Below, piece after piece: positions 2,826 to 51,165 of a stretch of DNA of 64,000 nucleotides. The stretch is from NCBI GenBank assembly GCA_000004985.1, contig GG738874.1; one strand, given 5' to 3'. The notes under the pieces were generated by a model that did not search any database, was not told the origin of the DNA, and saw only the letters and a program-made list of their open reading frames with translations. A program made the translations under genes and the position numbers. The number at the start of each line of letters is the position of its first letter. Position 1 is the stretch's first letter. Source of the DNA: Naegleria gruberi. Lineage: Eukaryota.

Positions 2826-4991
2826 ATGTTCAACCAAGAGTTTTCATTTCCAGCAAAGAAAGTACCATCATCAACTCATGAATCTCCGAGTATTGACAAT
2901 GAGCAACAGCAACCATTCGAGAAACCTGTAAGGATGGAAAAACCACCCATTCAAAATGATATTGAAGATTATGGCCTTATTGGAAATTGCCACACAGCTT
3001 GCCTTGTTGGTATGAGAGGATCCATCGATTATTGTTGCTTTCCACAATTCGATTCTCCTCCAATCTTTTCCAAACTCATTAGTAATCAACCTGCAGAGAC
3101 TTGTGGATTCTTTTCCATTCATCCAATGCGTATTGAAGATACCACGAATAAGCAACATTACTTTCCCGATTCTAATGTATTGGTCACCAAGTTCTTGTTG
3201 AGTGAAGGTGTTGGTCAATTGGTTGATTTGATGCCTATTTGGTCTGATAGTGGTGTTCATCCACAACAAACCGAAACGATGAATGAATCATCAACAAACT
3301 GCTCAACAATTGAAACTTGTTGTCCTATTACAAAACTCTTCAATTTGTATCACGGCTTCCATAGACAATTAGTGAAAACCAATAGTTCACAGTATAGAAA
3401 TTGCATTATTAGAAGGTTGGAAATTGTGCATGGAAAGATTGAGTTTCAAATTGTTTGTAAACCAATATTCAAATATGGAGCAGAGAAACCTCATGTTGAG
3501 ATATGCTCAAACAAGAAGAGTGTCGTCTTTTCATGTTCTGACCAGGCCATTATTCTTGAATCTAATAGACCATGCTTCGAAAGCATAGATGAAAAGGGAG
3601 CAGTCATTGGTTTGATTGAAATGAGTGAAATTGATCCAGAGAAGAGTTGTGTATTCTGTCTGAGATATTTAGAACAGGGAGATATGAAGGGAAATCATGA
3701 TTGTCAGACCTTATTGGATGAAATGTGCATTAATGAAGATTTGATGCTTATCACCAATGATCTCACTATTAAGACCATTAATTATTGGCAAAAGTACATT
3801 TGTAATAGTAATTACCAAGGAATTTTCAGAGAGATGGTCAATAGATCACTTCTAGCTCTCAAACTTTTAATGTTCAACGAGACAGGAGCTATAATTTCAT
3901 CTCCAACAACATCACTTCCCAAGTCAATTGGTGGTAATAGAAATTATGATTATAGATTTTGCTGGATAAGAGATGCCACCTTCTCAGTTAATGCTTTCCT
4001 CAAGACTGGAATGATTGAAGATGCTGCAAAAATTGTTGGATTTATTGAAAAGACATTTGATTCTGAAAAATCAGATTCCAAACCACTTTCCAATATTTAC
4101 ACAATTATGGGAAAGAAATTGAGCGGTTCCATTCAAGAAATCTCCAAGTTTAGTGGTTTCAAGCAAAGTATGCCTGTACGTGTTGGAAACATGGCTTCCA
4201 ATGCAATAGAATTGGATATTTATGGTGAACTGTTGGATTCAATCTATAACTTTGACATTGTCAGACCAATTTCTTACAACTTTTGGATTAAGTTGAAAGA
4301 TGTAGTTGAATTTGTAATTGAAAATTGGAGAAATCCGGATCATTCCATTTGGGAAAAGAGCAATAATAAGTGTCACTTTGTATATTCCAAAGTCATGTCA
4401 TGGTGTTGTTTGGACAGAGCATTGAGATTGGCTGATAGAAGAAGTTTCCCTGCTCCAAATGATAGATGGCTCAAAATAAGAAATGAAATCTATGAGGATG
4501 TAATGAAGAATGGATACAATGAAAAGATGAACACCTTTGTACAATCCTATGGTTCTGAAGTTCTTGATGTTTCTCTCCTTATTATGCCAATTATTGATTT
4601 TCTTCCAATTTCAGATCCAAGAATGGTCAACACTATCAATGCAATCAATAAGAAACCAAAAGAAGGTGGATTAGTTACCTCATCCCTTGTCTACAGAACC
4701 AGTGATCATCACAAGAGTGAAAAGTCAGCCACAGAGGGCACTTATAATATGCTCACTTTTTGGCTATTGAGAGTTTTGGCCATGATGAGTGATTATGACA
4801 ATAACAAGCTCAGACAAGCCCAACTCATGTTCGAACAAATATCCACCTTTAGTAATCATGTCGATCTCTATAGTGAATTGACCTCCTTTAGTGGTCTCAT
4901 GTTGGGTAATTTTATCCATTCCAATACTCATAGCTCACTCATTGTAGCAGCTGTTGAATTGGCCAAAAGAATTGACAATACAAACCTCTAA
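2826..4991 (+). CDS. Glycoside hydrolase family 15 (glucoamylase/trehalase-like) protein
   Basis: An N-terminal YGLIGNCHTACLVGMRGSIDYCCFPQFDSP block matches the GH15 N-domain. The RNYDYRFCWIRDATFSVNAF block matches the GH15 catalytic-domain hallmark YxYxWIRDxxF. The 721-aa length fits bacterial-type GH15 enzymes rather than phosphorylase-kinase subunits. Confidence 0.65.
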   Translation: MFNQEFSFPAKKVPSSTHESPSIDNEQQQPFEKPVRMEKPPIQNDIEDYGLIGNCHTACLVGMRGSIDYCCFPQFDSPPIFSKLISNQPAETCGFFSIHPMRIEDTTNKQHYFPDSNVLVTKFLLSEGVGQLVDLMPIWSDSGVHPQQTETMNESSTNCSTIETCCPITKLFNLYHGFHRQLVKTNSSQYRNCIIRRLEIVHGKIEFQIVCKPIFKYGAEKPHVEICSNKKSVVFSCSDQAIILESNRPCFESIDEKGAVIGLIEMSEIDPEKSCVFCLRYLEQGDMKGNHDCQTLLDEMCINEDLMLITNDLTIKTINYWQKYICNSNYQGIFREMVNRSLLALKLLMFNETGAIISSPTTSLPKSIGGNRNYDYRFCWIRDATFSVNAFLKTGMIEDAAKIVGFIEKTFDSEKSDSKPLSNIYTIMGKKLSGSIQEISKFSGFKQSMPVRVGNMASNAIELDIYGELLDSIYNFDIVRPISYNFWIKLKDVVEFVIENWRNPDHSIWEKSNNKCHFVYSKVMSWCCLDRALRLADRRSFPAPNDRWLKIRNEIYEDVMKNGYNEKMNTFVQSYGSEVLDVSLLIMPIIDFLPISDPRMVNTINAINKKPKEGGLVTSSLVYRTSDHHKSEKSATEGTYNMLTFWLLRVLAMMSDYDNNKLRQAQLMFEQISTFSNHVDLYSELTSFSGLMLGNFIHSNTHSSLIVAAVELAKRIDNTNL

Positions 4992-5103
4992 CTACTCTCA
5001 AAAACGATTCCCAACTCTATTGAAAATTCAAGATCTCAACATCACCAGACCTTCAAAGTTAGTTTCTAAAAAGTTGTACAATAAAAAAATCCTTAGAAAA
5101 AAA

Positions 5104-6777
5104 ATGATTAATGGAAATATTACTCTCCGTCGTCATCAGAGACATTTATTGGAGGAGGGCGTTAATTTGGTCCCTGATCCTAACTTGATGACTGTTCCAC
5201 CTGGAGGAGCTGGAGGTGAAAGTTTTAGTGAGGCAATGCCAACAATTTTATTAACCCCACCAAAGAGAGAGCCAATGCCTTTGAGAACACCTAAATCGGT
5301 ATCACCTGCATTGTCTAATGCATCAACTTCATCATTGTTTTTATCGGTGAATGCAACACCTCAGGGAAATAATTTTGCCTTTCCATCACCAAAAGGATTT
5401 AATAATTTGGATACCCCTAATAATTTGTTTTTAAGAAAACCTTCATCAGCCATGCAATCAAAGTCTGTTTTTGAGGGTCTTCCAGGATTTGTAAGTATTC
5501 CTTATTAAATTATTAGTATTTATTTATTTGGAATACAACAGAAAAAATGTAATCAAGAACAGTTTGAACATCATGCTCCAAAGGATGAAAAACAACAAAA
5601 GAAGAATCCAACTAAATATTCTGTAAGTTTGTTGTTGGATCTTTGAGACTAATTTTTATGGAATTAGAAAGATATTGAGGAGAGGTCAATTAATGCAGCC
5701 AAATCGTATAGATTTTTTGAGGATTCAATTTTGAGAAAACCTTCTTTAACTATTGGGCAATACAAGAGAAATAGCGTCCTGTATGAAGCTGATTTGAAGG
5801 ATTACAAAAGATTGAATATGGTTGCTGCCATGTCTGCATTGGAAGAAACTCCAATTGAAAAATATAATCGCTTAAAACAGGAAATTGAGGATTTTATTGG
5901 AGAAATGGGAAGAATGTCAGTGGAAAATCCAAAAGTAAAACTTGTTGGAGAAAATGTAGCAGTGTACTCTGAAATATTGGAGCAATCAAAAGAATTGAGG
6001 CAAAAGTTGGAAGTTGCAAAGGATACCAATACTTGCTGCTTTTTAGAATTGAATAACAAGGAGGATGAGTCAACAAATCAAATTCTTAGCCAAATTCAAT
6101 CCGAACTGGATAAGGCATTGGAAAATCAGTTAAATACTCTTGTTTCTCCTCAACAACAAACTCCAAAACTTCAAAAACCAAAGAAGGAAACTATTTCTCA
6201 GGACTCTTCAAGAGTGTTAAGATTGGAAAGAAGATTGGCTCACTTGGAGAAATTAGTTGGAACTGAGGATGAAAGGAGAAATGTCCTGCTTAATGATAAA
6301 AACTCCTCTGCCACTACGAAAAAGTATGCAAGTCTTGAAACAGCCATCAACATTTTGGAAAAGAAGGTCAACACAATTGATCCTTTCTTTATGCAATCGT
6401 TAGAGTCTAGAATTAAGAATATTTTGAAGGATTTGGAAAATATCTCCACTCTTGAAGTTGTAAACTCTTCATCAATAAGCTTTAATGGAACAAAAATTGA
6501 AAATTTATATCAAAGGGTCAGAAAGTGGGATGAGTTAACAAAACAAGTTCCTATGATTGTTTCAAGACTGCAAACATTGAAAATTGTTCATGATGAAGCA
6601 ATATATTTTGCAGGAACTGTCTCAAAATTGAAACAACAACAAGAGGAACTTTCTAGATTGTTGGATGGGAATGAAAAATTACTCACTAACATTTCCACTA
6701 ATTTTGATGATAATTTAGTGACTATTAATAAGAATATTAAATTAATCCAAACCAGGATTGAGAATATCAAAAAGTAA
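5104..6777 (+). CDS. DCTN2: Dynactin subunit 2 (dynamitin), three exons: join(5104..5490,5542..5622,5668..6777)
   Basis: The C-terminal region (ENLYQRVRKWDE, LKQQQEELSRLLDGNEKLLTNISTNFDDNL) matches the dynamitin coiled-coil region. The track ORF at 5731 starts at TTG. The upstream ORF (4954..5508) is in the same frame once two short introns are removed. Intron 1 (5491-5541) and intron 2 (5623-5667) both have GTAAGT donors and AG acceptors. All exon lengths are multiples of 3. The ATG at 5104 is preceded by an A-run. Confidence 0.65.
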
Positions 6778-6778
6778 T

Positions 6779-7579
6779 CTATAACATGATTACTATCAAC
6801 ATTGAAATCAATGTCATGACTGTAACAGAAATATTAATTACTGCTACGCTCGAAACTTGTGTACAAGCACTAACAGGAGTGGCACTATAATTGATTACAT
6901 CTCCGCTTTGTCCAACCAATCCTGCACTATTCTTCACACAGAAATACTTGAATTTCTTATCCAAATCAGTATTCAAGAAAAAGACACCCTGGTAAAACCA
7001 GTTGAAAGGATTGTAACCTCTGTCTCTGTTCCAACATCTATAAAGATGAGAATTTCCAAACTACAAATTACTTACGAATCAGTATATTTCATACATTCCG
7101 AATAACAGACAGGCAAGGCAGTATTATTAGAAGGATAACAGGAAGGAAAGTTTCTCAAACAAGAAAACCTTTTCCAAGATGTGGTGCAAGACTCGTCATC
7201 TGGTAAAAATTTAGAATTTTTCTTATAATTAGATAACAATGAAGCATCAACACTTGAATAATTGCTTGGTAGACAGCTATTTGTGGTGATTAGTTGATTG
7301 ATAGTATAAATATTGATTAATACTCTATTGATGTGATTAAATTATTGTAACATACACATATTCAGAGTCTGGTAAATGTTTGTAACACATGCCGAGTCCG
7401 GATTTATATTCACTTGATGCTTTGACGTCAGAAACGAGAAGACATTGACCATTGCAAGTTGATGTCGTCACTTGAGAATGAACATTTATAATCATCAATA
7501 AAAGAATCACAAAAGCAGTGAGAAGTTTGGGCACTGAAGTTAGAGAATGCAGTATCATCCTTTTTTTTTGATTTTTCAT
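6779..7579 (-). CDS. Small secreted Cys-rich protein with a possible Frizzled-type CRD-like segment and a C-terminal hydrophobic (GPI/TM-like) tail; tentative model join(7579..7356,7324..7076,7037..6779)
   Basis: The N-terminus is a signal peptide (MILHSLTSVPKLLTAFVILLLMIINVHS). The middle exon carries the spacing WKRFSCLRNFPSCYPSNNTALPVCYSEC, reminiscent of the FLCS..P.C...PPC..C core of Fz CRDs. The C-terminus is hydrophobic (VTVMTLISMLIVIML). Two very short introns of 31 and 38 nt, with GTATGT and GTAAGT donors, restore one continuous frame. The total length is a multiple of 3. Confidence 0.4.
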
Positions 7580-7955
7580 GATGAGTGACGTTTAATTGGT
7601 GTGAAAATGGCTGCCAACGATCAACAATCCTAAACTTTCTAGATGACCTGTTGTAAGATGGGATGGAATTACATTCGATCAAACTTTTTTAACATGCTTT
7701 GTTTGAGGATAATCACTCCTAACAATGTATCCAAGGATTAAGGAAAATCCAAATCCTCTCCATTTTCCCCACACAAAAAACTCACAATATTTGAAGGCCA
7801 TTAAAAAACATTCCATCAAGTCCAACTGCACAATAAAAAATGGTCCACCTTTTTTCGGGTTGCAGCTCAACATACTGCTCATAAAGTGGGGTCAATAAGA
7901 GTGTGTTAGAACTAACTTCCAGTTTGAAAAAAGTAAAAACACAACACATAGCACG

Positions 7956-8942
7956 ATGCAGTCATCATCTTTAGCAAATTACCCATCTTCTTCATCACAA
8001 TATTATAATATTAAAACAACTTCAATGAAGGAAATTAAAGCAATGAAGGAAAAGCAAAGAGTTGAAGCAATTTTGGATGGAGAAGTAACAATCATTGACA
8101 TGTCTCCAAAAACTAATATTTTCCTCATCAAATGTAATTGGGAAGAATGTAATTCATCTTCAATTCAGAATCAGCAACCAACTTCATCAACCGATAATAA
8201 TAATAGAGACGCTCATGAAATTGAAATCTCTCACGAATCAACTCATTCCACTCCTCAAGAATCATCATCTTCCAAATATTCTCACATTAAGATTAATAAG
8301 AAGGCAAAATATATTCTGATTGATACTGGTACGAATGGACAAGAGGAAAAACTAATCAAGGTTTTAGATAAGGAACTAGGCATTACACCGAATGATCTCT
8401 CCCTGATAGTAATTACTCATGCTCACATGGATCATGCAGGTACTTGTTGGTATTTGAAAAAGCACTTCCCTCATGTGCCAATTGCTGTGCCCGATCTGGA
8501 ATATGAAATGCTCAGGAGGGGAGAACCAGCACCTAGCACACCAACTAATTTAGTAGCTAAAATTCTGTACATTCGGGGGAGTAGAAAGAAGATTTTACCT
8601 TTCGAGCCCGATTTGAGATTTAAGGGAGGAGAACATTTGGAAGAGTTTGGAGTGAAGGCTTCCATTGTTCATATGAAAGGTCATACGGAGGGCAATATTG
8701 CAGTCATGCTCGATAATAAGAAGGCTGCCATTATGAATGATGTCATGAAGGGAGGTTTCTTCTCTTATGGAAAGCCAGGTTATCATCTCTTCTATGATGA
8801 CAAGATGCAAATTTTGAAGAATATCAAATGGGCCTTTGATGAAGGATTTCAGACCTTCCTAGTAACTCATGGATATGCATTCACAAGGGAACCACTGATT
8901 ACTTGGCTAGAGAAGGAATTGAAACAAAATAAATTAATGTAA
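7956..8942 (+). CDS. Metallo-beta-lactamase-fold hydrolase
   Basis: The HxHxDH motif (ITHAHMDHAG) and downstream His/Asp ligands identify the fold. The N-terminal 100 aa are low-complexity and Ser/Asn-rich. The ORF starts at an ATG. Confidence 0.7.
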   Translation: MQSSSLANYPSSSSQYYNIKTTSMKEIKAMKEKQRVEAILDGEVTIIDMSPKTNIFLIKCNWEECNSSSIQNQQPTSSTDNNNRDAHEIEISHESTHSTPQESSSSKYSHIKINKKAKYILIDTGTNGQEEKLIKVLDKELGITPNDLSLIVITHAHMDHAGTCWYLKKHFPHVPIAVPDLEYEMLRRGEPAPSTPTNLVAKILYIRGSRKKILPFEPDLRFKGGEHLEEFGVKASIVHMKGHTEGNIAVMLDNKKAAIMNDVMKGGFFSYGKPGYHLFYDDKMQILKNIKWAFDEGFQTFLVTHGYAFTREPLITWLEKELKQNKLM

Positions 8943-9223
8943 ATTAAGGATTAACTGCAGCTGCTAGTATTATTATTAGGTTATCATAATACCCAAACCA
9001 TAGCGGTGATTATTGAATGTTGCATTCAGGAGATTGTTGAACGATTCGTGATAATTAATGCGATCTCTTCATAGTATGCTTATTGCAACTCCCGAGAAAA
9101 GGGCGTATTTTCTCCCAAAGTTAACTATTTACAATAATTTCATCCACCCTCTCTCATCACCAAATCGATTTAAAAAGGATGCATTAAATAGATCAACAAA
9201 TCAAAATCTACACACAAAAAAAC

Positions 9224-9973
9224 ATGTCCACTTCATCAAAGCTCGTCGTTATTACTGGTGCTTCCTCTGGTATTGGAGAAGCTGCAGCTGAACTTTTGCA
9301 TTCAAAGGGTTATAAATTGTTGCTCCTTGCTCGTCGTTTGGAACGTATGCAGGAATTTGTAAAGCAACATTCCATGACTGAACAAGATACTCTCATTGCC
9401 CAATGTGATGTTACTCAAGTTGATGATATTAAGAAGGCCATTGATCATGCTCAAGATCATTTCAAATTACCAGTCGATTGTTTAATTAATAATGCAGGTG
9501 TCATGTATTTGCAACAATTGGCCGATCAATCCTTACAAAGACAAGAAACCATGATCTCCACCAATGTAAATGGTATTTTGAATGGTATTAATGTTGTTCT
9601 CAAATCAATGCTCGAACGTCAAACTGGTACCATTATTAACATTAGTTCAATTGCTGGTAAGAAGAGTTTTGGAAATCACGTTGCTTATTGTGGTACTAAA
9701 TTTGCTGTTCACGGATTGACAGAAGCTTTGAGATCTGAAGTTTCTGGATCCAAGGTCAGGGTCATTGTCATAGCTCCCGGAGTCACCCAAACTGAGTTAT
9801 TGGGTCACAACGACAAGGATCAAGTAGATCCATACGAGGATTGGAAAAAGACCATGTCTTTGGGTGTCTTGAAATCTGAAGATGTTGCTGCCAGTATTTT
9901 GTTTGCCTATGAAGCTCCTCCTCATGTTTGTATCAGAGAAATTGCCTTGGCTCCAACTGAACAACGCGATTAA
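9224..9973 (+). CDS. Classical short-chain dehydrogenase/reductase (SDR)
   Basis: TGASSGIG is the Rossmann NAD(P)-binding motif, NNAG is present, and the catalytic YxxxK is present as YCGTK. The length is 249 aa. Confidence 0.85.
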   Translation: MSTSSKLVVITGASSGIGEAAAELLHSKGYKLLLLARRLERMQEFVKQHSMTEQDTLIAQCDVTQVDDIKKAIDHAQDHFKLPVDCLINNAGVMYLQQLADQSLQRQETMISTNVNGILNGINVVLKSMLERQTGTIINISSIAGKKSFGNHVAYCGTKFAVHGLTEALRSEVSGSKVRVIVIAPGVTQTELLGHNDKDQVDPYEDWKKTMSLGVLKSEDVAASILFAYEAPPHVCIREIALAPTEQRD

Positions 9974-10933
9974 GCTTTTATGTTCCTGCCTATTTTATAC
10001 TACCACCCAAATTCTTTCCTTCCCTCTTTTCAATTTTAAATGTTCTTGAAGCTTTGAACCTTAATAAAGAAGAACATCATGTAATCTAAGATCAAGTTCT
10101 CAGTCATTGACCAATTCCGCTCAATTAAATAAACAAGGATCCTACATTCCTGTTCAGAGTCGCTTAAGAATTTGGCGCCAATCGACAAAACCCAAATACA
10201 GAAGCGAGAAATGCCAATCTCGTCTTGTGAACGCTTTGATATGTAAATATTAATGCCAAGGCGCGTTGTGTTTCGCCTCAATGAAAAAAGATGAATCCAA
10301 CCCCATCCTCATCATCGATGACACCTCACAATATTCATCATACAGCCAATAACAGTGGTGGTGGAAGTAGTAGCACACCAATAACATCAATTGGTGGAGG
10401 AGGTAATAATAATGGTGTTTTTCCATTTCTGATGAGTAGTAATTCAAATTCAAGTTACAGCAACAGCAATACGAATAATAATTGTACAAAGAATGGCCAA
10501 CAACAACAGGGAGTAGTGGTGACGAATAGTGGACAATTTCACTCCCTATCCAGTATTAATTCAATTCATTTGACTCAAAATCTTCCTCAACAAACACCTC
10601 TTTCTCCCCGAATAACAAATAATAGTAATCATCGCGAACAATTGCAATTAACAGCTGCTCTTCATACCAGTACAGTATTTTCACCATCAAGTGTTACCGA
10701 GAAGACTCATGATGGTGACAATTCTTCGATATTTAATGGATCTGCCTCGAGCACAGTTCTCTCAAAATCAGCATTCAACACTGTTGTCAATAAGGTAAAA
10801 AATCATTTCATGAGTTTTACCTTATTCATGCAAGATAATGAAAAGAAACAGAGCAAAATGGATAGAATTATGATGTTTGGAATGTATATGTATATGATAT
10901 GGGTAGGAATATGGATTTCAACATTGAGTCCTT

Positions 10934-23043: not shown

Positions 23044-24765
23044 ATGTTTGATCCTAGCGATATGAGCAATATTCCTCTTGCTGGGACAGTTTATCCAACA
23101 GAAGAAGAATTTAAAAATCCAATAGAATATCTTGAATCTGTAAGACATTTAGGAGAAAAGTATGGTATTCTTAAAATTGTACCACCTGAAAAGTATAAAT
23201 TAGACCCTGCTGAAGACTTTGACGACCTTCAGGTAAAAGCCAATGCTTTTAAATTTATTTGCAAAATACAGAATATTAACCAACTTCAATTCAGAAATAA
23301 GAAACAAAAGTTAGAATTTGAAAATAATATTAAATCGGAGGTGGATGAATCATCATCTTTAGAAAATTCATTAAAGAGAAAAGCTGAAAATCTTTCAGAT
23401 TCGCCACAGAAAAGACTTAAAGATAACTCTGACAAATCCTTCAAACCAATAATTACATCTATGGGTGGTGATGATAGTTTTGGCTTTGAAAGAACCAAGA
23501 AGGAAATATCTCTTAAGAAATACAAGGAAATGGCTGATGAATTTTCAAGACGTCATCTCAAGTCTATACAGAAACAATTATCCCCTTCCTCACCTGAAGA
23601 GAAGAGACTCAAGACTTGTGAAAATGCAAAATCATCGACAAACTCTTCCAATCTTGATATGACTAGTCTTAGTGATGATGAAATTGAAAAAGAATATTGG
23701 AGAATTGTGAATAATCACGAAGAAACTGTAACTGTACAATATGGAAACGATTTACCTGTTTCTGATTATCAAACCTTTTTCCCAGCCAGTTGGAAACAAG
23801 GATGGGATGCAAATTTATTGCCTAAACTTCCTGATTCACTGCTATCTTTCCTTAATATTGATATTCCTGGTGTGAATACTCCAATGTTATATGTTGGTAT
23901 GCTTTTCAGTTCTTTCTGTTGGCATGTTGAAGATCATTTCATGTATGCCATGAATTTTATACATCACGGTGCTCCAAAACAATGGTATGGTATTCCAGCA
24001 TCAGGGGCAGATAAGTTTGAAGAGGTGTTTCGTAGAATGTTCCCTAATCTCATGGATGGGCAGCCTGCTATTTTACACATGCTTGTAACACAAATAAGCC
24101 CAGCCATTCTTGCACGCGAAGGTGTTCCTGTCTATAGAATTGTACATGAACCTGGTACTTTTATCATTACATTCCCTAGAGCTTACCATGCTGGCTTCAA
24201 TCAAGGTTTTAATATTGCCGAATCTGTAAACTTTACCTCAACATCATGGCTTCCTTATAACCGTTTGGCTCTTTCCAAATATTATGAATGCAAGAGAGCA
24301 ACCACTTTCCCTTACGAACATCTAATTCTCTCAGCTGTTACATCGATAATTTCTGGCAAGTCCAACCCTTCAACTTCTAAATACACATTTTCAACACGAG
24401 AATCACTCAAAGATGAGTTATCATACATTTCAAAGGATGAGAAGGAATTAAGAGAATGTTTAGCAGCACTCCTAACAGATAAAACGCCAAGACAAATGCC
24501 ACAAATATCAAATAGAAATATTGAAAAGTTAAGAACATGCTCCAAGAAGGATAATAACATCAGATGTTGTCAATGCAATTCTGATTGTTACATATCTGCT
24601 GCTGTTCTTAAAGGAAGAAAGAAGGAAGATAACTTTTGTTTAAGGTGCGCCATAGAAAAGGCAAAAGAAAGTGAAGACTTTGCTAAGAAATGTTACATGA
24701 TTGAAAGAATGACTTTGAAAGATTTAGAAATCTTGATAGAAAAGTTCGAAAAGGTGTTAGCTTGA
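23044..24765 (+). CDS. JmjN/JmjC-domain histone lysine demethylase (KDM4/KDM5-like) with a C-terminal Cys-rich zinc finger
   Basis: JmjN is TEEEFKNPIEYLESVRHLGEKYGILKIVPP. JmjC has the Fe ligands (HVEDH...H) in FCWHVEDHFMYAMNFIHHGAPKQWYGIP and ITFPRAYHAGFNQGFN. A C-terminal CCQCNSDC...CLRCAIEK cluster follows. The ATG at 23044 is in frame with the track ORF that starts upstream at 22939. Confidence 0.8.
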   Translation: MFDPSDMSNIPLAGTVYPTEEEFKNPIEYLESVRHLGEKYGILKIVPPEKYKLDPAEDFDDLQVKANAFKFICKIQNINQLQFRNKKQKLEFENNIKSEVDESSSLENSLKRKAENLSDSPQKRLKDNSDKSFKPIITSMGGDDSFGFERTKKEISLKKYKEMADEFSRRHLKSIQKQLSPSSPEEKRLKTCENAKSSTNSSNLDMTSLSDDEIEKEYWRIVNNHEETVTVQYGNDLPVSDYQTFFPASWKQGWDANLLPKLPDSLLSFLNIDIPGVNTPMLYVGMLFSSFCWHVEDHFMYAMNFIHHGAPKQWYGIPASGADKFEEVFRRMFPNLMDGQPAILHMLVTQISPAILAREGVPVYRIVHEPGTFIITFPRAYHAGFNQGFNIAESVNFTSTSWLPYNRLALSKYYECKRATTFPYEHLILSAVTSIISGKSNPSTSKYTFSTRESLKDELSYISKDEKELRECLAALLTDKTPRQMPQISNRNIEKLRTCSKKDNNIRCCQCNSDCYISAAVLKGRKKEDNFCLRCAIEKAKESEDFAKKCYMIERMTLKDLEILIEKFEKVLA

Positions 24766-24886
24766 AAATAAATAGCTGCCAGATTCGAAAAACCAGTTAA
24801 TATGGGTCTGTAGTAAACACAGGTTATTCTAATTTTTATCTAAATATAATTTAACATAATGAGTATATTTTCAATATGAATAAGAT

Positions 24887-24958
24887 TCCCGTGTAGTCCA
24901 ATGGCTAGGATACCTGGCTTTCACCCAGGAGGTCCGGGTTCAATTCCCGGCATGGGAG
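24887..24958 (+). tRNA. tRNA-Glu (anticodon UUC)
   Basis: A cloverleaf could be drawn by hand. The acceptor is TCCCGTG/CATGGGA with one G-U pair. The D-arm is GTCC...GGAT. The anticodon stem CCTGG/CCAGG carries the loop CTTTCAC (TTC). The T-arm is CCGGG-TTCAATT-CCCGG. Total length is 72 nt. Confidence 0.9.
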
Positions 24959-25043
24959 GATAATTTTGCATTCAATAATAATTTAAGTTAATAAATATTT
25001 CTAACTTTATTTACAGGTAATAGAGAAAAATTTGTTAACTATT

Positions 25044-26944: not shown

Positions 26945-29689
26945 TTAATGTTCCAGTGCAACAGACAACTTTTTGTCTCCCACCAAAACCAAATCTGTAC
27001 TAGGGGCCCCCTTTCTAATCTCGTCAAAATTGTTAAAATCAATCATTCCCAAAGCACCACATTTTTGTTGTTCCTTAAAAATCAATCGTTGTTCCCTTAA
27101 AATCTTTTGAGTATTATCCAATGCTCCAAATCGAATTGGCTTTGGAAGTGGTGCTCTCGCATCAACAACTGGTAAGGCATTATGAGGGATTCGTTTTGCA
27201 GGAAGAATAACCTTTACATTCTTATCTTTACCACTTGTCAGCATGACTGTTTTGTTTGTTTCATGTGAGTAAAACATTGTTGGAACATTTGCAGTCTTGA
27301 TTGAGGGATTGTCAGGGGCAACTAGCTCAGCATCAGAGGGTTTGTAAGATGACACATATGGAATTGCCTTCTTTGATTTTGAAAAATCATAATATCTCTT
27401 GGTGTCTCTGGATTTTGGTAACTTGATGTGATTGTCCATTTCCGTGGCAACACTTGAAAGTGTCTCTTCCTGAACATCTTTGTAAGGTATTGGAGAGCTT
27501 TCCAAATTCATCAACTCTGTATCATCGAAACTTATATCTGCTACAATTTCCTTCTTCTTCTCAGGTGATCTGAAAATCGATCTAGTAGGAGAAACAATTC
27601 TGTTGGATAAATATGACTTTCTTGAATAGGGCACAAGATTAATGGTTGGTGTGTATTTCAGATCAAATCTGTTGGATGAGGGCGAATCCTTATCTCCAAA
27701 GGTAACAAACAAGAATTGGCGAGGTTGATCATGATATTGCAAGTGCTCAGCCATATCTTGCTTTGGTTGAAATTTGGGTTTTTTCAGAAATTCGTATTTT
27801 GCTTCCCTTTCGGAATACATTTGATTATTTTCTGAGGGTTGATGAGCATGGGGAGCATCAGTCAGATGGTGTGAAACAATGAATAATCTTTCATTCTCTG
27901 AAAATGAAACAATAAAATCAAAAACAGGAAATGAAAGGTCCTGGCAATCATGTATAGTTATTCTCAAATGCTGATTGAGAACTGATTTAACAGTGCTTTC
28001 GTTTAGCCATGGTAAACATTCTACGCACGCAAAAATACAATCGTCAGAATGGTATTCTGGAACAATATAGCCTAGCTCATTAACCTACAAAATAGTTTCA
28101 ATACAAGTAATTAAGTAAATATACATACTGGTTGATTATATAATGTTACAAATAAATTAGAATTGAAAGTATCAATGTGGATATAGTGAGGGGAACGGAG
28201 TTGGGAAATACTAATGTTAAACCTAGATTTCAATAATTTATATTCTGATGTGGAATAATTTACAAGCCTCATCTGAAAAAGATTAATTAAACTATGTGAA
28301 ATGGTAAAAATACTTACTCTAAATACATAGAATAGTGGGTGGTGTGGATCGAGTTGAGAAATGTTAGTGTTTTTCAGAAAACCCAATTCACTTCTTTTCC
28401 TTTTTAGCATATCTTCATCAGGAGTTATGGATAGAGGAGGAAACTCTCTACTATTAGTATTCAGTCTATTATTCATGGATGATAAACTCTGAAATACGGA
28501 GGGTATTTGAGAGAGTGACATATCATGTGTTTGAGAATGGCCATTGTGACCATATCGTCTCATGTTTTCCTTATGTTTTTTGGAGACCTCCTTCTCGATT
28601 TGTTCTCTCGTTTTGATATCTATATTTACAACTTGATCAAATAAGCTTGGTTGTTTTGAGCACATGTCGGGCTTCTCAATAATTTTTGGCTCTGTCTTTC
28701 TTTTCGTAAGTTTGCTTCTTGGAGTCCCTGTTGCACTGCCAGGATCTTGAACAGGTGTCTTTGGAGAGGCAACTTCTGATCTATCAGTACTTGGAGGGTC
28801 AGAGGAGAGAGCTGCCAACTCTTCGTTTTTTTTCTCCCTCACATAGGCAAGATATTCTCCCAATGATAAATCATAGGGAAGATCAATTACTGACTCTGAC
28901 ATTTCTAGAACTGGAATTGTACGAGTCGATTTTTCTGGTGTCTTTTTTACACCTCTCAGAGCTGCAACAGGGGAAGGCAATAACAGACCAGCTCCAGATG
29001 TAATTTTAGGTTTGTACAACTTAGCCTTTCCAAACATTCTGAATCTGTAACCAACAGCAATTTGTTGCTCCTCCTCTTTCCTCAAATCCTTCTTTTGTTT
29101 TTCAGCCCTGACAAGATTTTTCTCAATCAGGACGAATCTAGTGTTACAATCATCCAAATGACTCAAATCTTTCCAAAATCTATGAATTGAAAATTATTTC
29201 AATTAAAATTAATTACCATTTTAAAGACACAACCTACCTGTGTCTCACCCTTAAGGGTATTGAGGATTTTGTCACCTCTCCTTGATTTTCACTATCCAAA
29301 TGCTCCTTAATAGCTTTAAGAGTAGTAGAAACTCCATCAACTTCATACTTTTTAGAAATGGATTGATGCTTCTCCTCTACTCCTCTCCACTGCCTGTCAA
29401 CTTCCCTAAAATTAATAGGCAACGAATGGTCATCATTTTTCAAATATTTTTTACTATTCTTTACAAATAATTCCAAACTTTCATCAGCACTCGCCTTAAC
29501 ATTCACTTGCTTATTTGTAGCACTCGCAGATCCTCTTCTTTTCTTTTTTTGTGATGACAAAATTGACCTCCTCTCCAATTCACTCCTCCTATTTTCACCT
29601 ATTGAATCCTCATCCAACTCACTCACATTTCCAATTATCCTCACTGTTGAAGTGGGAGAAGTAACCGTGGTCGGACTGATGGATTGCAT
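26945..29689 (-). CDS. Multi-exon hypothetical protein (at least 4 exons joining track ORFs 29234..29689, 28111..29166 and 26945..27967)
   Basis: On the minus strand the three ORFs are linked by short introns. The first has a GTAGGT donor right after ...RVRHR and an acceptor before FWKDLSHLDD. The second has a GTAAGT donor after PLFYVFR, then a short exon, then GTATGT to TTTTGTAG before VNELGYIVPEYH. Frames are continuous. No known domain was recognised. The protein is Lys/Ser-rich and partly disordered. Confidence 0.45.
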
Positions 29690-29794
29690 CCTTTTCTCTG
29701 CTACGGTACAATGAGTAGGAATATATTCGTTGTTCTTTCTAGTTGTTGTTGCTTATTTTTTTTAAAGTATTTTAAATTGTACCGTGCAGAGATG

Positions 29795-30035
29795 GCGGTT
29801 TTTTCAAGCATGATATCTTTGTTTTCTGTAGACAATAACATTGATAAAAACCGTTGACAGCAAGGTTTGAAAATTGGGACAATTGTGTTTCATGAGGTAT
29901 CGTAAATATTATTTGGAATGGTTGCACAAATTCACTCTTCTAAAGTTCCTTTGTATGGATTTCGGGATGTAATGTATTTCTTGCTGCAAACATTTTCCAA
30001 GTAGAAATAAACCATTTCTGATCCTCTCAATAACC
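29795..30035. repeat. Direct repeat, left copy, flanking the kinase-fragment locus
   Basis: Shares the blocks ttttcaagcat..gatatctttgttttctgtagaca.aacattg and ttccagtagaaat.aacca.ttctgatc.tct.aataac with 31287..31447, in the same orientation. The left copy carries an extra segment of about 85 nt. Confidence 0.7.
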
Positions 30036-30037
30036 AC

Positions 30038-30717
30038 ATGCTTCATATGCTACAAAGGGATAGTCTCGGCAATGAGAAGGAAGCATTTGCCTTGCTCACA
30101 TCACCTAAGAGCGAAGGAGGTCTAGGAATTGAAAGGGAACGATTAAATAGATTTGAGGGAAATTGGCAACTTATCCTATTCAACATTATTGAAAATTTAG
30201 AAATTGGTGGGGTAAGACTTAGCAAAGATTTTGATGGGAACAAAAGAAGAAAATGAGAGAGAGGTTAGTCCACCTACAGGAATTGTGAAAATCAAGTTAT
30301 GCTCGCTTGGCCTTGAGGGTGAAGATAACATGAATCGTTTCTCTGATGGAATTTATCATTGTTTGATAATGCCACATTACCCAAGAAGTTTGGCTCTTTT
30401 GGAAAAACTATTAACTCCAGAAATAATACTGAACGAGGGGAAGAACATTTATGGAGCCTCTTAAATTTATCCACAAAAAAGGAATGGTTCATATGGATGT
30501 AAAACCTGCTAATATATTTGTTAGTACTGAAGATGACTGGTTTTTAGGAGATTTTGGTTCTTGTGTCAAGATTGGAGAAGCAATGGTTGGTTATGATTTT
30601 TTCATGTTGGCTGTGAGCAAGATCAAAATCAGATTTTGCAAGATGAATTGCTGTTTGAAATTGTTTATTCAAAAGTTGTTAAACAAAGCCAATTTGGAAA
30701 AAATAGAAGAATTATAA
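30038..30717 (+). pseudogene. Fragmented Wee1/Myt1-like protein kinase remnant preceded by a conserved small ORF
   Basis: Three short ORFs lie in different frames. ORF 30038..30256 is a paralogue of ORF 56976..57173 (EGG[LI]GIE..LN...E......L..I[IV].NLEIG) and is followed by GTAAGA. ORF 30451..30717 encodes the catalytic loop VHMDVKPANIFV...FLGDFG, which is diagnostic of Wee1/Myt1-type kinases. Stops and frame changes break it, and no complete kinase domain can be assembled. Confidence 0.5.
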
Positions 30718-31286
30718 AACCAATAATTGGATTAGTTCAGTTTCCGATAATTCTACTTTCCCTACATGCTGGGCAGTAAAACTTAGTAGAGTACTAATAC
30801 TTTGAATGTATGACATGAGTCTACGCTTGTACTCCTCATGAAATTACTCAGTTAATATTTGAAATAAGCACTCTGATGCTCATATGGTTGTATGACATAC
30901 ATCTATCTGTAACAAGTACTTCTGGCAAGAAGACAACTTATTAATAAGGCTCCACAATTGGTCACTGTATAAAATCATCCAAATCTATGGATATGATGAT
31001 AATTCTAAATGAATATATTTTTAAAAATACATAAATGTACATCTTCTAATGAATCATTAATGCAAATCCAATAGTAAATAAATAATTCAATAAATTATTA
31101 ATATTAATAGCATTAATAATAAATAAATATTATTCGGAACGATATTTCCTAAAATTTTCATCCTCAAACAACTTCAACTTAAATTTCCGATTATTAATAG
31201 GCCAATAATTCACCAATTTAATCCAACTACAATTCAAATACTTTTGTTGTGATGATATTGCGACAGAATAGTATTTTTTTAAGTGT

Positions 31287-31447
31287 TGTTATCTTTTCAA
31301 GCATTTTGATATCTTTGTTTTCTGTAGACACAAACATTGCAATATCATTTGGAATGTCTTTGGATTTCAGAACAGATTTATATTCCTTGATGGTAACATG
31401 TATTTCCAGTAGAAATGAACCAGTTCTGATCTCCTCTTAACAATCTT
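31287..31447. repeat. Direct repeat, right copy
   Basis: See the feature at 29795..30035. It ends about 340 bp upstream of the capping-protein gene. Confidence 0.7.
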
Positions 31448-31789
31448 GCAGCCATAATGGTGTTGACCAATCACTTTTTTTCATGGACGTTAATCAATCA
31501 CTTCTTTTTCCAAATTTTCCAATGACAGGCAATCATTTAATGACAAGTGCTTGCTTTTACAACTTGTTATTTTTTCATCAGCTTTGAAAGCTCTCGCAGT
31601 ATGTTGTTGTTCCTTTCCACATCACACAAAAATCAATTTTCACAAACAAAAAATATCAGTCTCGCATAACGGACGTGTCTTTGTTAGCGGATCAGATTTA
31701 AATTTTAAATAATATATCCATTATTTACATCATCATCAACAACAACAAGGAGTTTACTCACATTATAACAAAATATATTTTCTGTAAAA

Positions 31790-32635
31790 ATGTCCCAATT
31801 ATCTACTGATGAAACTCTTCGTATTGTTAGACATTTCCTCTTGAGTTCTCCACCTGGACAATTCGAGGATGTTCTCTTTGATATCAGAGATCTTGTTTCC
31901 AATGATCAACTCTTGAACACTGGTGCTTTTGATATCTTCCGTACTTACAATGTTGAACAATTAATTCCTGTTGAAGTACCAGAAAAAAGCTACAAGGTTA
32001 TTCTCTCTAAATACAATGAAATTTCACCAGATACATATCTTGATCCTGTTTCTGATCAAGTTCTCACTGTTGACCATGTTAAAGGTGTTGTTACTCAAGC
32101 CTCTCCAGCTAACAGTGATGTTGATAATTCATTGAAACAAAAGAAGGACAAACTCGTCAAGGCTATTCAAAAGTACGTTGAAGACCACTACCTCTCTGGT
32201 ATTTCAAGCGTATTCCCATCCCAAAGACAAGATCAAAAGGGTGAACTTATTATTTGTATTACTGCCAGCAAATTCAATGAAAAGAATTATTGGAGTGGTA
32301 GATGGAGGTCAGTCTATCGTGTCAGCTTTGTTGAAGACAAGGTTAAGCTTTCTGGTTCTATGAAGGTCAATTGTCACTATTATGAAAATGGTAACGTTCA
32401 ATTGAACACTTCAAAGGAACACGGAGAAACTGTTGATGGAGGTGATTCATTCGCTGATAATATTGTCAAGATGTTGATCAAGGCTGAAGGTAACTTCCAA
32501 ACTCAAATTGATAGCTCTTGTGCTAACTTGAACGAAACTTTCAAGAGTTTGAGACGTCCATTGCCAATGACCAAGACTTTGTTCGATTTTGCTTCTACTC
32601 AACACAAGTTGGCCAGAGAATTCGGTGGTAATTAA
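31790..32635 (+). CDS. F-actin capping protein alpha subunit
   Basis: Clear similarity to CapZ-alpha throughout the length. Matching segments include NYWSGRWRSVY, HYYENGNVQLNT and the C-terminal FKSLRRPLPMTKTLFDF. The length is 281 aa. Confidence 0.9.
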   Translation: MSQLSTDETLRIVRHFLLSSPPGQFEDVLFDIRDLVSNDQLLNTGAFDIFRTYNVEQLIPVEVPEKSYKVILSKYNEISPDTYLDPVSDQVLTVDHVKGVVTQASPANSDVDNSLKQKKDKLVKAIQKYVEDHYLSGISSVFPSQRQDQKGELIICITASKFNEKNYWSGRWRSVYRVSFVEDKVKLSGSMKVNCHYYENGNVQLNTSKEHGETVDGGDSFADNIVKMLIKAEGNFQTQIDSSCANLNETFKSLRRPLPMTKTLFDFASTQHKLAREFGGN

Positions 32636-35577: not shown

Positions 35578-35650
35578 GCTGGCGTAGCTCAGTCGGTAGA
35601 GCGTTGGTCTAATAAGCCATTGGTCGCCGGTTCGATCCCGTCCGTCAGCA
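35578..35650 (+). tRNA. tRNA-Ile (anticodon AAU)
   Basis: The acceptor GCTGGCG/CGTCAGC pairs with one G-U. The D-arm is the classic GCTCAGTCGGTAGAGC. The anticodon loop CTAATAA gives AAT. The T-loop is TTCGATC. One mismatch sits at the 27-43 position of the anticodon stem and one C-T mismatch in the T-stem, so the gene could be slightly degenerate. Confidence 0.7.
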
Positions 35651-48261: not shown

Positions 48262-48333
48262 GGCCGTATAGCTCAGTGGTAGAGCTTCTCTCTCGTAAGG
48301 AGAAGGTCGTGGGTTCAAACCCCATTGCGGCCA
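48262..48333 (+). tRNA. tRNA-Thr (anticodon CGU)
   Basis: The acceptor GGCCGTA/TGCGGCC pairs. The D-arm is GCTCAGTGGTAGAGC. The anticodon loop CTCGTAA gives CGT. The T-arm is GTGGG-TTCAAAC-CCCAT. Total length is 72 nt. Confidence 0.85.
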
Positions 48334-48341
48334 AATTTGAA

Positions 48342-48512
48342 TTTTAATCTTTTGCTATTCCTCGCTTTGTTTTTTGATATTTTTACTTTATTTTTTCAAA
48401 TTCTCACATTTACAAGTTTATCTACATGTGGTTCAATTTTCCAATCTTTAATTCAAGAAATGATTGAGAATGAGCTGTTCTAAAGTGGGTACATGATTTT
48501 TCGCTTGAATTT
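48342..48512. repeat. Direct repeat copy 1 (tRNA-proximal) of the element flanking the HNH gene
   Basis: The blocks ttttaatcttttgctatt and aattttccaatctttaattcaagaaatgattgagaa..agctgttctaa.....gtacatgatttttcgcttgaattt recur at 50383..50495 in the same orientation. Copy 1 carries a 75-nt internal segment that copy 2 lacks. Confidence 0.8.
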
Positions 48513-48923: not shown

Positions 48924-49847
48924 TTATTTTTCCATAGACAATACTCTTTGAAAACTCAACAAGTTCACCATTCTCTCCTTCATTCCTAAATCAATAACTT
49001 CCGATCTTGCATGCTTTTCCATGTGCTCAAAATAATGGCACCCATCGCAAAGCAATTCAAATTCCTTCAATTTTTCTACTTGTTCCTCTTCGGTCATTCC
49101 AAGAATTAACTTGTACTCATTAACATTATTGGCTATTTCCCTCTCTTCCTCATCGATATCTTCTGTTGCTTGAGCTCTCTTCTTCACACCATCCCTATTC
49201 TTGTGATGCACATGGAATATCTTTCCCAATTCTGAATTAGATTCAAAAGACAAGCCACATTCCTGACATTTTCCTCCCATCAGAGTGATCATCTTTTCAT
49301 GACAATATTGCCAATTAGAACCACCTTCAACATTCCTTGCATGTTCCAAACCATGACAAGGTCTGCACAATACTTCCAACTTTTCATTCTTCTTGAACCA
49401 ATCAGCTCCAAGCTTTCTGAATTCGGGAATGAATTTTGTTGTACTCTTAAATGTCTTTGTAAAGTCATCATCTTTATACATGACATGATGAAGAGTGAAT
49501 GCATTAACCTCATGTAAATGTTCCATTTCAATACGACATCTATTGCACTTGATTGACAAATCATCCCTCTCCAACACTTCTCTTAAAAAAGTATGAATGG
49601 CAGCTTGCTTTTTTCTGGAAATGTAAACAGCACATCTGGGACATGTTTCATCATCCTTCAATTTAACAGAACCAAAACAAAAATGGCAGTTGACACCTTC
49701 AGCTCTAATCTTGTTAATCCTGTCACTCATTTGAAGTATAGTCTTTTTGGAACATTCCTTGCACTTGTCCCTATTTGTCTTCGAAACAAGTTGGCCGCAT
49801 CCACACAACCCTTGGTCTCTACGAGTGCATTTTCGTGCTCTTTCCAA
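48924..49847 (-). CDS. Zinc-ribbon protein with two tandem HNH (His-Me finger) nuclease motifs
   Basis: An N-terminal CxC...CxxC ribbon (GLCGCGQLVSKTNRDKCKEC) is present. Two modules follow with the CxxC...HH...N...LCxxCH architecture. The first reads CNRC...TLHHVMYKD...KNEKLEVLCRPCHGLEH. The second reads CQEC...FHVHHKNRD...LLCDGCHYFEH. The ATG at 49847 opens a 307-aa ORF that could be expressed on its own. Confidence 0.6.
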   Translation of the reverse strand: MERARKCTRRDQGLCGCGQLVSKTNRDKCKECSKKTILQMSDRINKIRAEGVNCHFCFGSVKLKDDETCPRCAVYISRKKQAAIHTFLREVLERDDLSIKCNRCRIEMEHLHEVNAFTLHHVMYKDDDFTKTFKSTTKFIPEFRKLGADWFKKNEKLEVLCRPCHGLEHARNVEGGSNWQYCHEKMITLMGGKCQECGLSFESNSELGKIFHVHHKNRDGVKKRAQATEDIDEEEREIANNVNEYKLILGMTEEEQVEKLKEFELLCDGCHYFEHMEKHARSEVIDLGMKERMVNLLSFQRVLSMEK

Positions 49848-50372
49848 CTCGTTAGCTCTCTCACGTTGCTCATTGGATTGAGCAATGTGATTACTTAACT
49901 TCTTAACAAAATCTCTAAAGCCATTAGAGTATTGAAAAGTTCCATCATGAATAGCATTTTTGAATTTCTACCAAGTTTCTATTCTCTTTTCATTATTCTT
50001 GAATTTATCTGGGAAATGATCATACAATTCTTGGACATATGCAAGATAAGCCCTTGCCAATTTCGAACCATATTCATGAGAAATATTGGATGAAGGTCTT
50101 GGAGGACACTTGTTGAGTTTAACATTATCCAATATGGGAAGGAATTCTTCCAAGATTGAATTGTTGGGTTGATTTCTCTTCTTGGTTGGTGGAGTTGATT
50201 CAATGGTAGAATCCCTTCTCTTCTTACTATCATTACTTGATGAAGGCTTGTTGGAATTATTTGAAGATTGACCAGAGTTGCTAATAATAATACATGATGA
50301 TTGACTAGTTGATGATGATGAAGCCTTTCTGGTAGACTTTGGTTGAATTGATAACGTGGTTGATGATAACAC
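49848..50372 (-). pseudogene. In-frame 5' extension of the HNH gene, interrupted by a TAG and lacking any ATG
   Basis: The 134-codon ORF 49968..50372 (Ser/Asn-rich, ...KFKNNEKRIETW) ends in TAG at 49968-49970. It continues in the same frame through KFKNAIHDGTFQYSNGFRDFVKKLSNHIAQSNEQRERANELERARK into the HNH ORF, since 49967 minus 49847 equals 120. The extension begins right after a TAA and its first sense codon is GTG. It contains no Met codon. Confidence 0.55.
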
Positions 50373-50382
50373 TTGATTTCCT

Positions 50383-50495
50383 TTTTAATCTTTTGCTATT
50401 TTCTCCACCATTTCGCTAATTTTCCAATCTTTAATTCAAGAAATGATTGAGAACTAGCTGTTCTAATCTTGGTACATGATTTTTCGCTTGAATTT
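50383..50495. repeat. Direct repeat copy 2, immediately 5' of the HNH gene extension
   Basis: See the feature at 48342..48512. Confidence 0.8.
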
Positions 50496-50873: not shown

Positions 50874-51165
50874 TCATAGTTCAGTAAAGATGAACAGCAC
50901 ATGTGTCGGCTGTACTGTCAAGGCTTGGGATGAGAGTATACTAATATCTGGAATCATCTTCTTCATCTTGTCACTCATTGGGATTGTATTCTTTTTGGAA
51001 CATTCTTTGCACTTGTCCCTATTTGTCTTCGAAACAGGTTGGCCGCATCCACACAACCCTTGTTCTCTACGAGTGCATTTTCTTGCTCTTTCCAATTCAT
51101 TAGCCCTCTCACGTTGCTCATTGGATTGAGCAATGTGATTACTCAAGTTCTTCACAAATTGATTT
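50874..51165 (-). pseudogene. Truncated second copy of the HNH gene 5' region
   Basis: About 190 nt (50960..51152) are roughly 90% identical to 49721..49910. They encode ...KNLSNHIAQSNEQRERANELERARKCTRREQGLCGCGQPVSKTNRDKCKECSKK, then diverge and terminate. Confidence 0.75.

Follow-up and report, generated by a model that had tools for sequence, protein, structure and literature searches.

An arrangement of two direct repeats of ~150-240 nt around ~1.3 kb recalls LTR and TRIM elements, and a catalytic loop of the form H-M-D-[VI]-K-P-x-N-I-F recalls the Wee1/Myt1 kinases (PKMYT1). Both likenesses meet at a single locus of Naegleria gruberi, within a 64 kb stretch of DNA that was analysed as a whole (the window). 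The window is gene-dense with a GC content of ~35%, and six of the ten window ORFs that were looked up are exact N. gruberi NEG-M proteins (EFC43296 to EFC43317). An earlier note on this DNA had proposed that the repeats enclose a Wee1/Myt1-like pseudogene block, either a decayed segmental duplication or a transposon-captured kinase fragment. The reading that we consider most probable, at roughly 0.7, is that the interval holds a truncated, non-functional kinase-like relic, fairly recently inactivated and flanked by a locus-specific local duplication. The relic would be a member of an uncharacterised, divergent eukaryotic protein-kinase family that is intact or near-intact in N. fowleri and Willaertia magna. 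The features of the locus are the following:

29234-29689, minus strand: first coding exon of the upstream gene (gene 26945-29689), the left anchor (ORF list; tblastx synteny with N. fowleri L003 1463-4096)
29799-30034, plus strand: left direct repeat, non-coding (gapped local alignment, BLASTN)
30038-30256, plus strand: ORF of 72 aa upstream of the kinase core, in the third frame (ORF list)
30219-30624, plus strand: detectable core of the kinase-like pseudogene (tblastn, family HMMs, frameshift-aware alignment, Pfam Pkinase)
30625-30745, plus strand: weak, non-significant pseudogene tail (ORF list, frameshift-aware alignment; not recovered by the HMMs)
30746-31291, no strand: AT-rich spacer from the relic to the right repeat, 27% GC, no homology found
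31292-31444, plus strand: right direct repeat (gapped local alignment, BLASTN)
31790-32635, plus strand: F-actin capping protein alpha subunit gene, the right anchor (exact match to EFC43307; synteny)

The two repeats are near each other, lie in the same orientation and are similar far above chance, as is expected of a local segmental duplication. Gapped local alignment pairs 29799-30034 with 31292-31444, possibly with a weaker extension to 29743 / 31244, at a score of 174 compared with 63 +/- 7 (maximum 83) for 200 shuffles. The repeats that had been placed at 29795-30035 and 31287-31447 are thus present at essentially those coordinates, and the kinase-derived block is bracketed by a genuine direct duplication. 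The copies share 87% identity over 179 aligned columns (K2P 0.14, 13 gaps), and BLASTN in the 64 kb window resolves two cores, 29801-29843 vs 31294-31339 (89%, E 2e-10) and 29975-30033 vs 31381-31443 (78%, E 5e-6). A 22-mer common to both copies occurs at these two sites only in the window, where none is expected by chance. The left copy exceeds the right by a net ~83 nt, close to the extra internal segment of about 85 nt described before, but this surplus is not one segment: it consists of three gaps of 60, 15 and 16 nt (29844-29903, 29921-29935 and 29940-29955). The block between the repeats (30035-31291) measures 1257 nt, matching the earlier figure of about 1.25 kb. On the outer sides, both repeats lie upstream of a start codon: the left one at a distance of ~110 nt from the ATG (29689) of its minus-strand neighbour, the right one at 345 nt from that of the capping-protein gene. 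The same window contains a second partial local duplication (49708-49910 / 50956-51158, 91%), showing that local duplications recur in these 64 kb.

The repeats themselves do not resemble coding sequence on either strand, as the translations of paired ORFs differ mostly by non-conservative replacements and stops. Neither do they resemble a structured RNA, a tRNA or a SINE: the repeats have no Rfam match at E<=1, the interval as a whole has no tRNA (ARAGORN) or Rfam match, and the fold of the right repeat gives z-scores of -0.15 (plus strand) and -1.64 (minus strand), which is no structure signal. We also considered that the repeats might be the N-terminus of a second, tandem kinase copy. This was rejected, since in frameshift-aware protein-to-DNA alignments against 29700-30225 and 31240-31790 the N-terminal regions of P0001 (the closest relative, see below), P0002 and P0003 score within the range of shuffled sequence and the HMMs return nothing.

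Between the repeats, ORFs of 72, 77 and 88 aa follow one another in series on one strand, and what survives in them of a kinase-like gene is only its middle, roughly from the beta3 strand to the DFG motif. In tblastn, frame 0 (30219-30458) corresponds to residues 135-218 of N. fowleri P0001 and frame 1 (30439-30624) to its residues 212-284. The 88-aa ORF in frame 1 (30451-30717, ending at the TAA 30715-30717) matches Pfam Pkinase at 2.6e-9, above the gathering score, over profile positions 109-150 of 263 only, and carries VHMDVKPANIF...LGDFG at 30487-30558, with the catalytic loop VHMDVKPANIF at 30487-30519 and DFG at 30550-30558. A family HMM recovers only positions 139-241 of 332 (domain E 1.6e-26 and 1.3e-14), and an HMM built from heterolobosean sequences only recovers positions 223-329 of 408 (E 9.5e-26 and 1.4e-21). 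The N-terminal and C-terminal thirds of the gene are not detectable in the block with the HMMs, and N-terminal scores remain within the shuffle range. Such partial recovery (103/332 and 107/408 profile positions), together with the N-terminal scores, argues for a relic rather than a functional member of the family. The 72-aa ORF occupies the place expected for the N-terminal region of the family, and its homology to that region is not significant (BLASTP against P0001 E 0.11; frameshift-aware scores within the shuffle range; nothing from the HMMs). At least 135 N-terminal codons would fall on the left repeat and on the 5' end of the neighbouring gene, and thus the gene is structurally truncated and not merely mutated. 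The AT-rich tract reported to follow the kinase fragments corresponds to the spacer at 30746-31291.

The surviving core is also disabled from within. A frameshift lies at ~30440-30458, where the tblastn segments of the two frames overlap (30439-30458) in continuous homology. Because the overlap falls inside uninterrupted homology, this is a true frameshift and an intron cannot explain it. Frame 0 is closed by stops at 30213-30215 (a TAA that parts the 72-aa ORF from the core) and at 30462-30464. The activation segment is deleted, a loss of 19 codons: compared with every family member, 18-19 residues are missing after KIGEA (~30588) and before YDFFML. The block therefore holds no complete open kinase domain, given the partial Pkinase match, the frameshift, the stops and the lost activation segment, nor does any one open frame hold the full family architecture of N-terminal extension and complete kinase-like domain. 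The description of the block as decayed kinase-derived sequence split by stops and frame changes is borne out by these lesions and by the missing termini. Compared with N. fowleri, the mismatch fractions at codon positions 1, 2 and 3 are 0.23, 0.10 and 0.46 (92 codons, 71% amino-acid identity). Read as a trace of past selection, this pattern shows that the relic was a selected coding sequence, under purifying selection until fairly recently, which suggests that a structural rearrangement, and not gradual decay, put an end to the kinase-like gene.

To which family the relic belongs is clear from its relatives. With the concatenated ORFs as query, 13 relatives were found, all of them kinase-like proteins of ~330-370 aa. 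The best is P0001 (7.8e-35, 55% identity), whose 90% cluster includes N. fowleri FDP41_007337 and FDP41_001242, followed by the Willaertia magna hypothetical proteins ABK040_002614, ABK040_005171 and ABK040_000557. The retained core shares 57% amino-acid and about 70-73% nucleotide identity with its closest relatives. The similarity is significant and extends to family-specific, non-generic regions; for example, the family motifs NRFSDG.Y.CLIMPHYPRSLA align with the window sequence in tblastn. An exhaustive profile search delimits a protist kinase-like family of 245 clusters (50% identity) at E<=1e-30, which also includes many unnamed metagenome proteins. Conserved traits of the family are an invariant beta3 lysine, the alphaC glutamate E143 (in at least 90% of sequences), HMDVKxxNIF, DFG and an N-terminal extension. 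A scan of metagenomes for close relatives of the relic returned generic kinases only, and a profile search of a word-indexed protein database was swamped by generic kinases. One family member adjoins Tim17 on a eukaryotic contig, which indicates a cellular eukaryotic family; a giant-virus origin was considered and rejected on the same ground, the one viral contig match (IMG/VR) being weak, at 30% identity. No description of the relic locus or of the family was found in the literature, and the family appears to be undescribed.

These relatives also decide against the Wee1/Myt1 assignment, for which the catalytic loop had been taken as diagnostic. The loop VHMDVKPANIF does conform to HxD[IV]KPxNIF, but the whole protist family has this motif, and the eIF2-alpha kinases have a similar one, so that it cannot serve to diagnose Wee1/Myt1. 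Among solved structures, Myt1 is nominally the top match of the 88-aa ORF (2e-7), in effect a tie with GCN2 (2.2e-7), and with the family profile as query the ranking is GCN2 (2e-15), NEK1 (2.4e-14), Myt1 (4.7e-13) and PAK1 (2e-12). The relic is thus not specifically closer to Wee1/Myt1 than to other groups of kinases, and the protist relatives match far better. The resemblance to Wee1/Myt1 is, as judged from these alignments, confined to one motif, and the relic's own family differs from those kinases in architecture, being without an APE-type activation segment.

Within Naegleria the family seems to be decaying. The catalytic core is intact in Willaertia, and the N. fowleri relatives lack 8 residues including VHMD, and with them the catalytic HxD, though their reading frames are still open. 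In N. gruberi the copy is dead, and single-query protein-database searches recovered no family member from N. lovaniensis.

The relic lies, as the earlier note had it, between an upstream multi-exon gene and the capping-protein gene, and both anchors are syntenic with N. fowleri. By tblastx, conserved synteny between the two species covers a JmjC gene (23656-24759), the upstream minus-strand gene (26954-29422) and the capping gene (31787-32634). What lies between the anchors differs in each species: in N. gruberi 2.1 kb with the kinase relic and the repeats, in N. fowleri 5.5 kb with a 238-aa gene, an S8 peptidase and an acetyltransferase, and in N. lovaniensis an RNase H fragment, a 158-aa gene and an acetyltransferase. 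No cross-similarity was found among these three contents, and no remnants of the N. fowleri or N. lovaniensis genes were found in the N. gruberi interval. The stretch between the anchors, in which the relic lies, is therefore prone to rearrangement. The relic is not an in-situ orthologue of the N. fowleri kinase-like gene, which is not near the capping gene; that gene lies between a hybrid histidine kinase gene and a UbiA gene, and the N. fowleri assembly contains this locus twice. Nor is the N. gruberi relic syntenic with the P0056 locus of W. magna.

Other explanations have to be weighed against a dead gene beside a local duplication. It is conceivable that annotation has missed a functional gene here, the ORFs being joined by splicing or recoding into a kinase or pseudokinase of short or unusual form: three sizeable ORFs stand one after another on the same strand, both the catalytic loop and the DFG motif are preserved, and the N. 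fowleri relatives are themselves aberrant and still open. However, the frame change (EGKNI / LKFIH) leaves no room for an intron within the homology, the candidate GTAAGA...TAG intron at 30213-30221 is only ~11 nt long, the activation segment is gone, and the N-terminal domain, including the context of the invariant lysine, VK(L/I)L, is not recoverable. Moreover, no number is free for a gene model here in the series from EFC43297 to EFC43307, and we regard a functional product as very improbable. Less far-fetched, if still improbable, is a mobile-element origin, in which the repeats would be copies of such an element or its ends (an LTR, solo or paired, something TRIM-like, a SINE or a MITE) and the kinase fragment would have been captured or carried between them. 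This would fit the direct orientation of the repeats around a 1.26 kb block and the scatter of the family, whose members in N. fowleri, W. magna and N. gruberi occupy loci that are not syntenic. It would also fit the RT and RNase H genes found 4-7 kb upstream at the N. fowleri loci, as well as the RNase H fragment in the orthologous N. lovaniensis interval. However, a target-site duplication, which the earlier note had proposed to look for at the outer repeat edges, did not emerge from a 35x35 position scan beyond chance 5-6-mers. Neither copy has terminal inverted repeats, only short internal inverted matches. Unlike LTR and TRIM elements, the repeats show no TG..CA ends, no tRNA-complementary primer-binding site (PBS) after the left copy and no polypurine tract (PPT) before the right copy, and, as noted above, they have no tRNA or Rfam similarity. 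No third copy exists in the 64 kb window (BLASTN, 22-mer count), no counterpart was found in the fetched N. fowleri, N. lovaniensis and W. magna loci, and the shared 22-mer core is absent from the JGI metagenomes. Finally, the N. fowleri kinase-like locus is without flanking repeats. We infer that the repeats are not the termini of a mobile element, and within the sequences searched the evidence does not support a transposon-captured fragment. More speculatively, the repeat-kinase-repeat unit might be the footprint of an unrecognised mobility of gene fragments in Naegleria, by a non-autonomous element, by single-crossover integration of circular DNA or by template-switch insertion. Such fragment mobility might, if true, move dispersed members of the kinase-like family between non-syntenic loci, an idea that we consider a long shot.

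A further possibility is that an intact kinase-like gene elsewhere in the N. gruberi genome was copied in part, as a segment or by templating, and that the block is this copy, inserted with a target duplication of ~200 nt. A fragment copy would account for the survival of only the middle third of the gene with homology lost abruptly on both sides, and the repeat-insert-repeat architecture is as expected from an insertion with a long flanking duplication. Selection until fairly recently, as read from the codon positions, and the second duplicated pair in the window would be in keeping with it. However, no intact N. gruberi member of the family was recovered among annotated proteins, although the database searched includes the N. 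gruberi proteome, and the closest relative belongs to another species, at 57% identity only. The search for an intact parent that the earlier note had suggested, as run on the annotated N. gruberi proteins, thus does not bear out a decayed duplication of a parental gene. These word-seeded protein searches have weak sensitivity below ~35% identity (a third W. magna member was missed) and unannotated genes escape them, so an unannotated or highly divergent intact N. gruberi paralogue could exist. A copy from such a gene deserves to be kept in view, though we think it unlikely.

On the reading of a truncated, fairly recently inactivated relic, the flanking repeats would most simply be a duplication of ~155-290 nt of intergenic DNA confined to this locus and associated with the rearrangement or rearrangements by which the kinase sequence was inserted or cut short. 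The duplication may have arisen in the rearrangement that killed the gene, or in an earlier one, during repair or replication; a template switch, an unequal repair event, or an insertion that left a long duplication on its flanks could each have produced it. Decay seems to have gone at least as far in the repeats, which show 13% substitution divergence and many indels, as in the kinase core, where indels are few. Duplication and inactivation may therefore be separate events, the duplication possibly being the earlier one. No function would be expected of anything in the interval. The locus would thus be ordinary genome debris, an unannotated pseudogene and a small local duplication in a free-living amoeba, with little wider biological weight. 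Its value is that a tempting mis-assignment to Wee1/Myt1 is corrected, that the DNA from the upstream gene to the capping gene is marked out, over three Naegleria species, as a hot spot of rearrangement, and that it points to an uncharacterised protist kinase-like family which is more worth studying than the locus itself.

Compared with the heterolobosean and protist kinase-like family, the relic retains the non-generic motifs MPHYPRSLA, WFLGDFGSCVKIGE and YDFFML. It differs from the family in being frameshifted and interrupted by stops, in having lost the activation segment, the N-terminal extension (RPxE..LY..LPxTTT..LNG) and the C-terminal helices, and in a position that is non-syntenic with every member examined. 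As a whole, the locus compares with fragmentary or unitary pseudogenes that are accompanied by repair or template-switch duplications, with the difference that the rearrangement mechanism is here only deduced. As in those cases, a truncated relic with disabling lesions is bracketed by a non-coding direct duplication, and it is located where gene content differs between congeners.

The interval that separates the conserved upstream gene from the capping-protein gene differs wholly in content among three Naegleria species, as judged from window 29690-31789 for N. gruberi, positions 4519-10001 of the N. fowleri capping-gene stretch (L003) and positions 6227-10001 of its N. lovaniensis counterpart (L037). 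An acetyltransferase gene is common to the N. fowleri and N. lovaniensis intervals, and in this comparison it was missing from N. gruberi 29690-31789.

Partial local duplication also occurs elsewhere in the window. Segments 49708-49910 and 50956-51158, direct repeats with 91% identity over 203 nt, span the 5' end of a Cys-rich minus-strand ORF (48924-49847), a shortened second copy of which is found in ORF 50874-51155. This pair is another partial local duplication, with copies lying about 1.25 kb apart. A further direct pair, 48435-48512 and 50418-50495 (94% over 78 nt), lies close to one of the three tRNA genes noted in intergenic regions of the window:

24886-24959, tRNA-Glu (TTC)
35578-35650, tRNA-Ile (AAT)
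48262-48333, tRNA-Thr (CGT), the gene close to this repeat pair

Diverged internal repeats were also seen inside two long ORFs, at 2012-2201 and 2300-2489 in ORF 1196-2500, and at 61941-62013, matched by 62937-63009 and 62451-62519, in ORF 61386-63845. With identities of 67-77%, they presumably correspond to repeated protein domains.

In N. fowleri, the entire neighbourhood of the kinase-like gene appears to be present twice in assembly GCA_008403515.1:

VFQX01000003.1 31102-51998 (L002), first copy
VFQX01000023.1 1-19317 (L007), second copy, at a contig end

The doubled content comprises a 162-aa gene, RT/RNase H genes, a hybrid histidine kinase, the kinase-like gene and UbiA. The kinase-like ORF of the second copy is shortened to 233 aa and its C-terminus differs. 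The doubling reflects either a segmental duplication near the contig end or an assembly duplicate. The N. fowleri family members are located in three of the fetched stretches:

L001 8151-9170, kinase-like gene
L002 10001-10897, kinase-like gene
L008 1121-2146, kinase-like gene

The Pfam Pkinase score of the N. fowleri protein (26.4) falls below the gathering score of 31.7, and the protein may be a pseudokinase or the product of a decaying gene. Eight catalytic-loop residues, VHMD among them, are missing from the N. fowleri proteins (ALEYIH joined to VKPANIF), whereas the family members of Willaertia magna retain FVHMDVKP.
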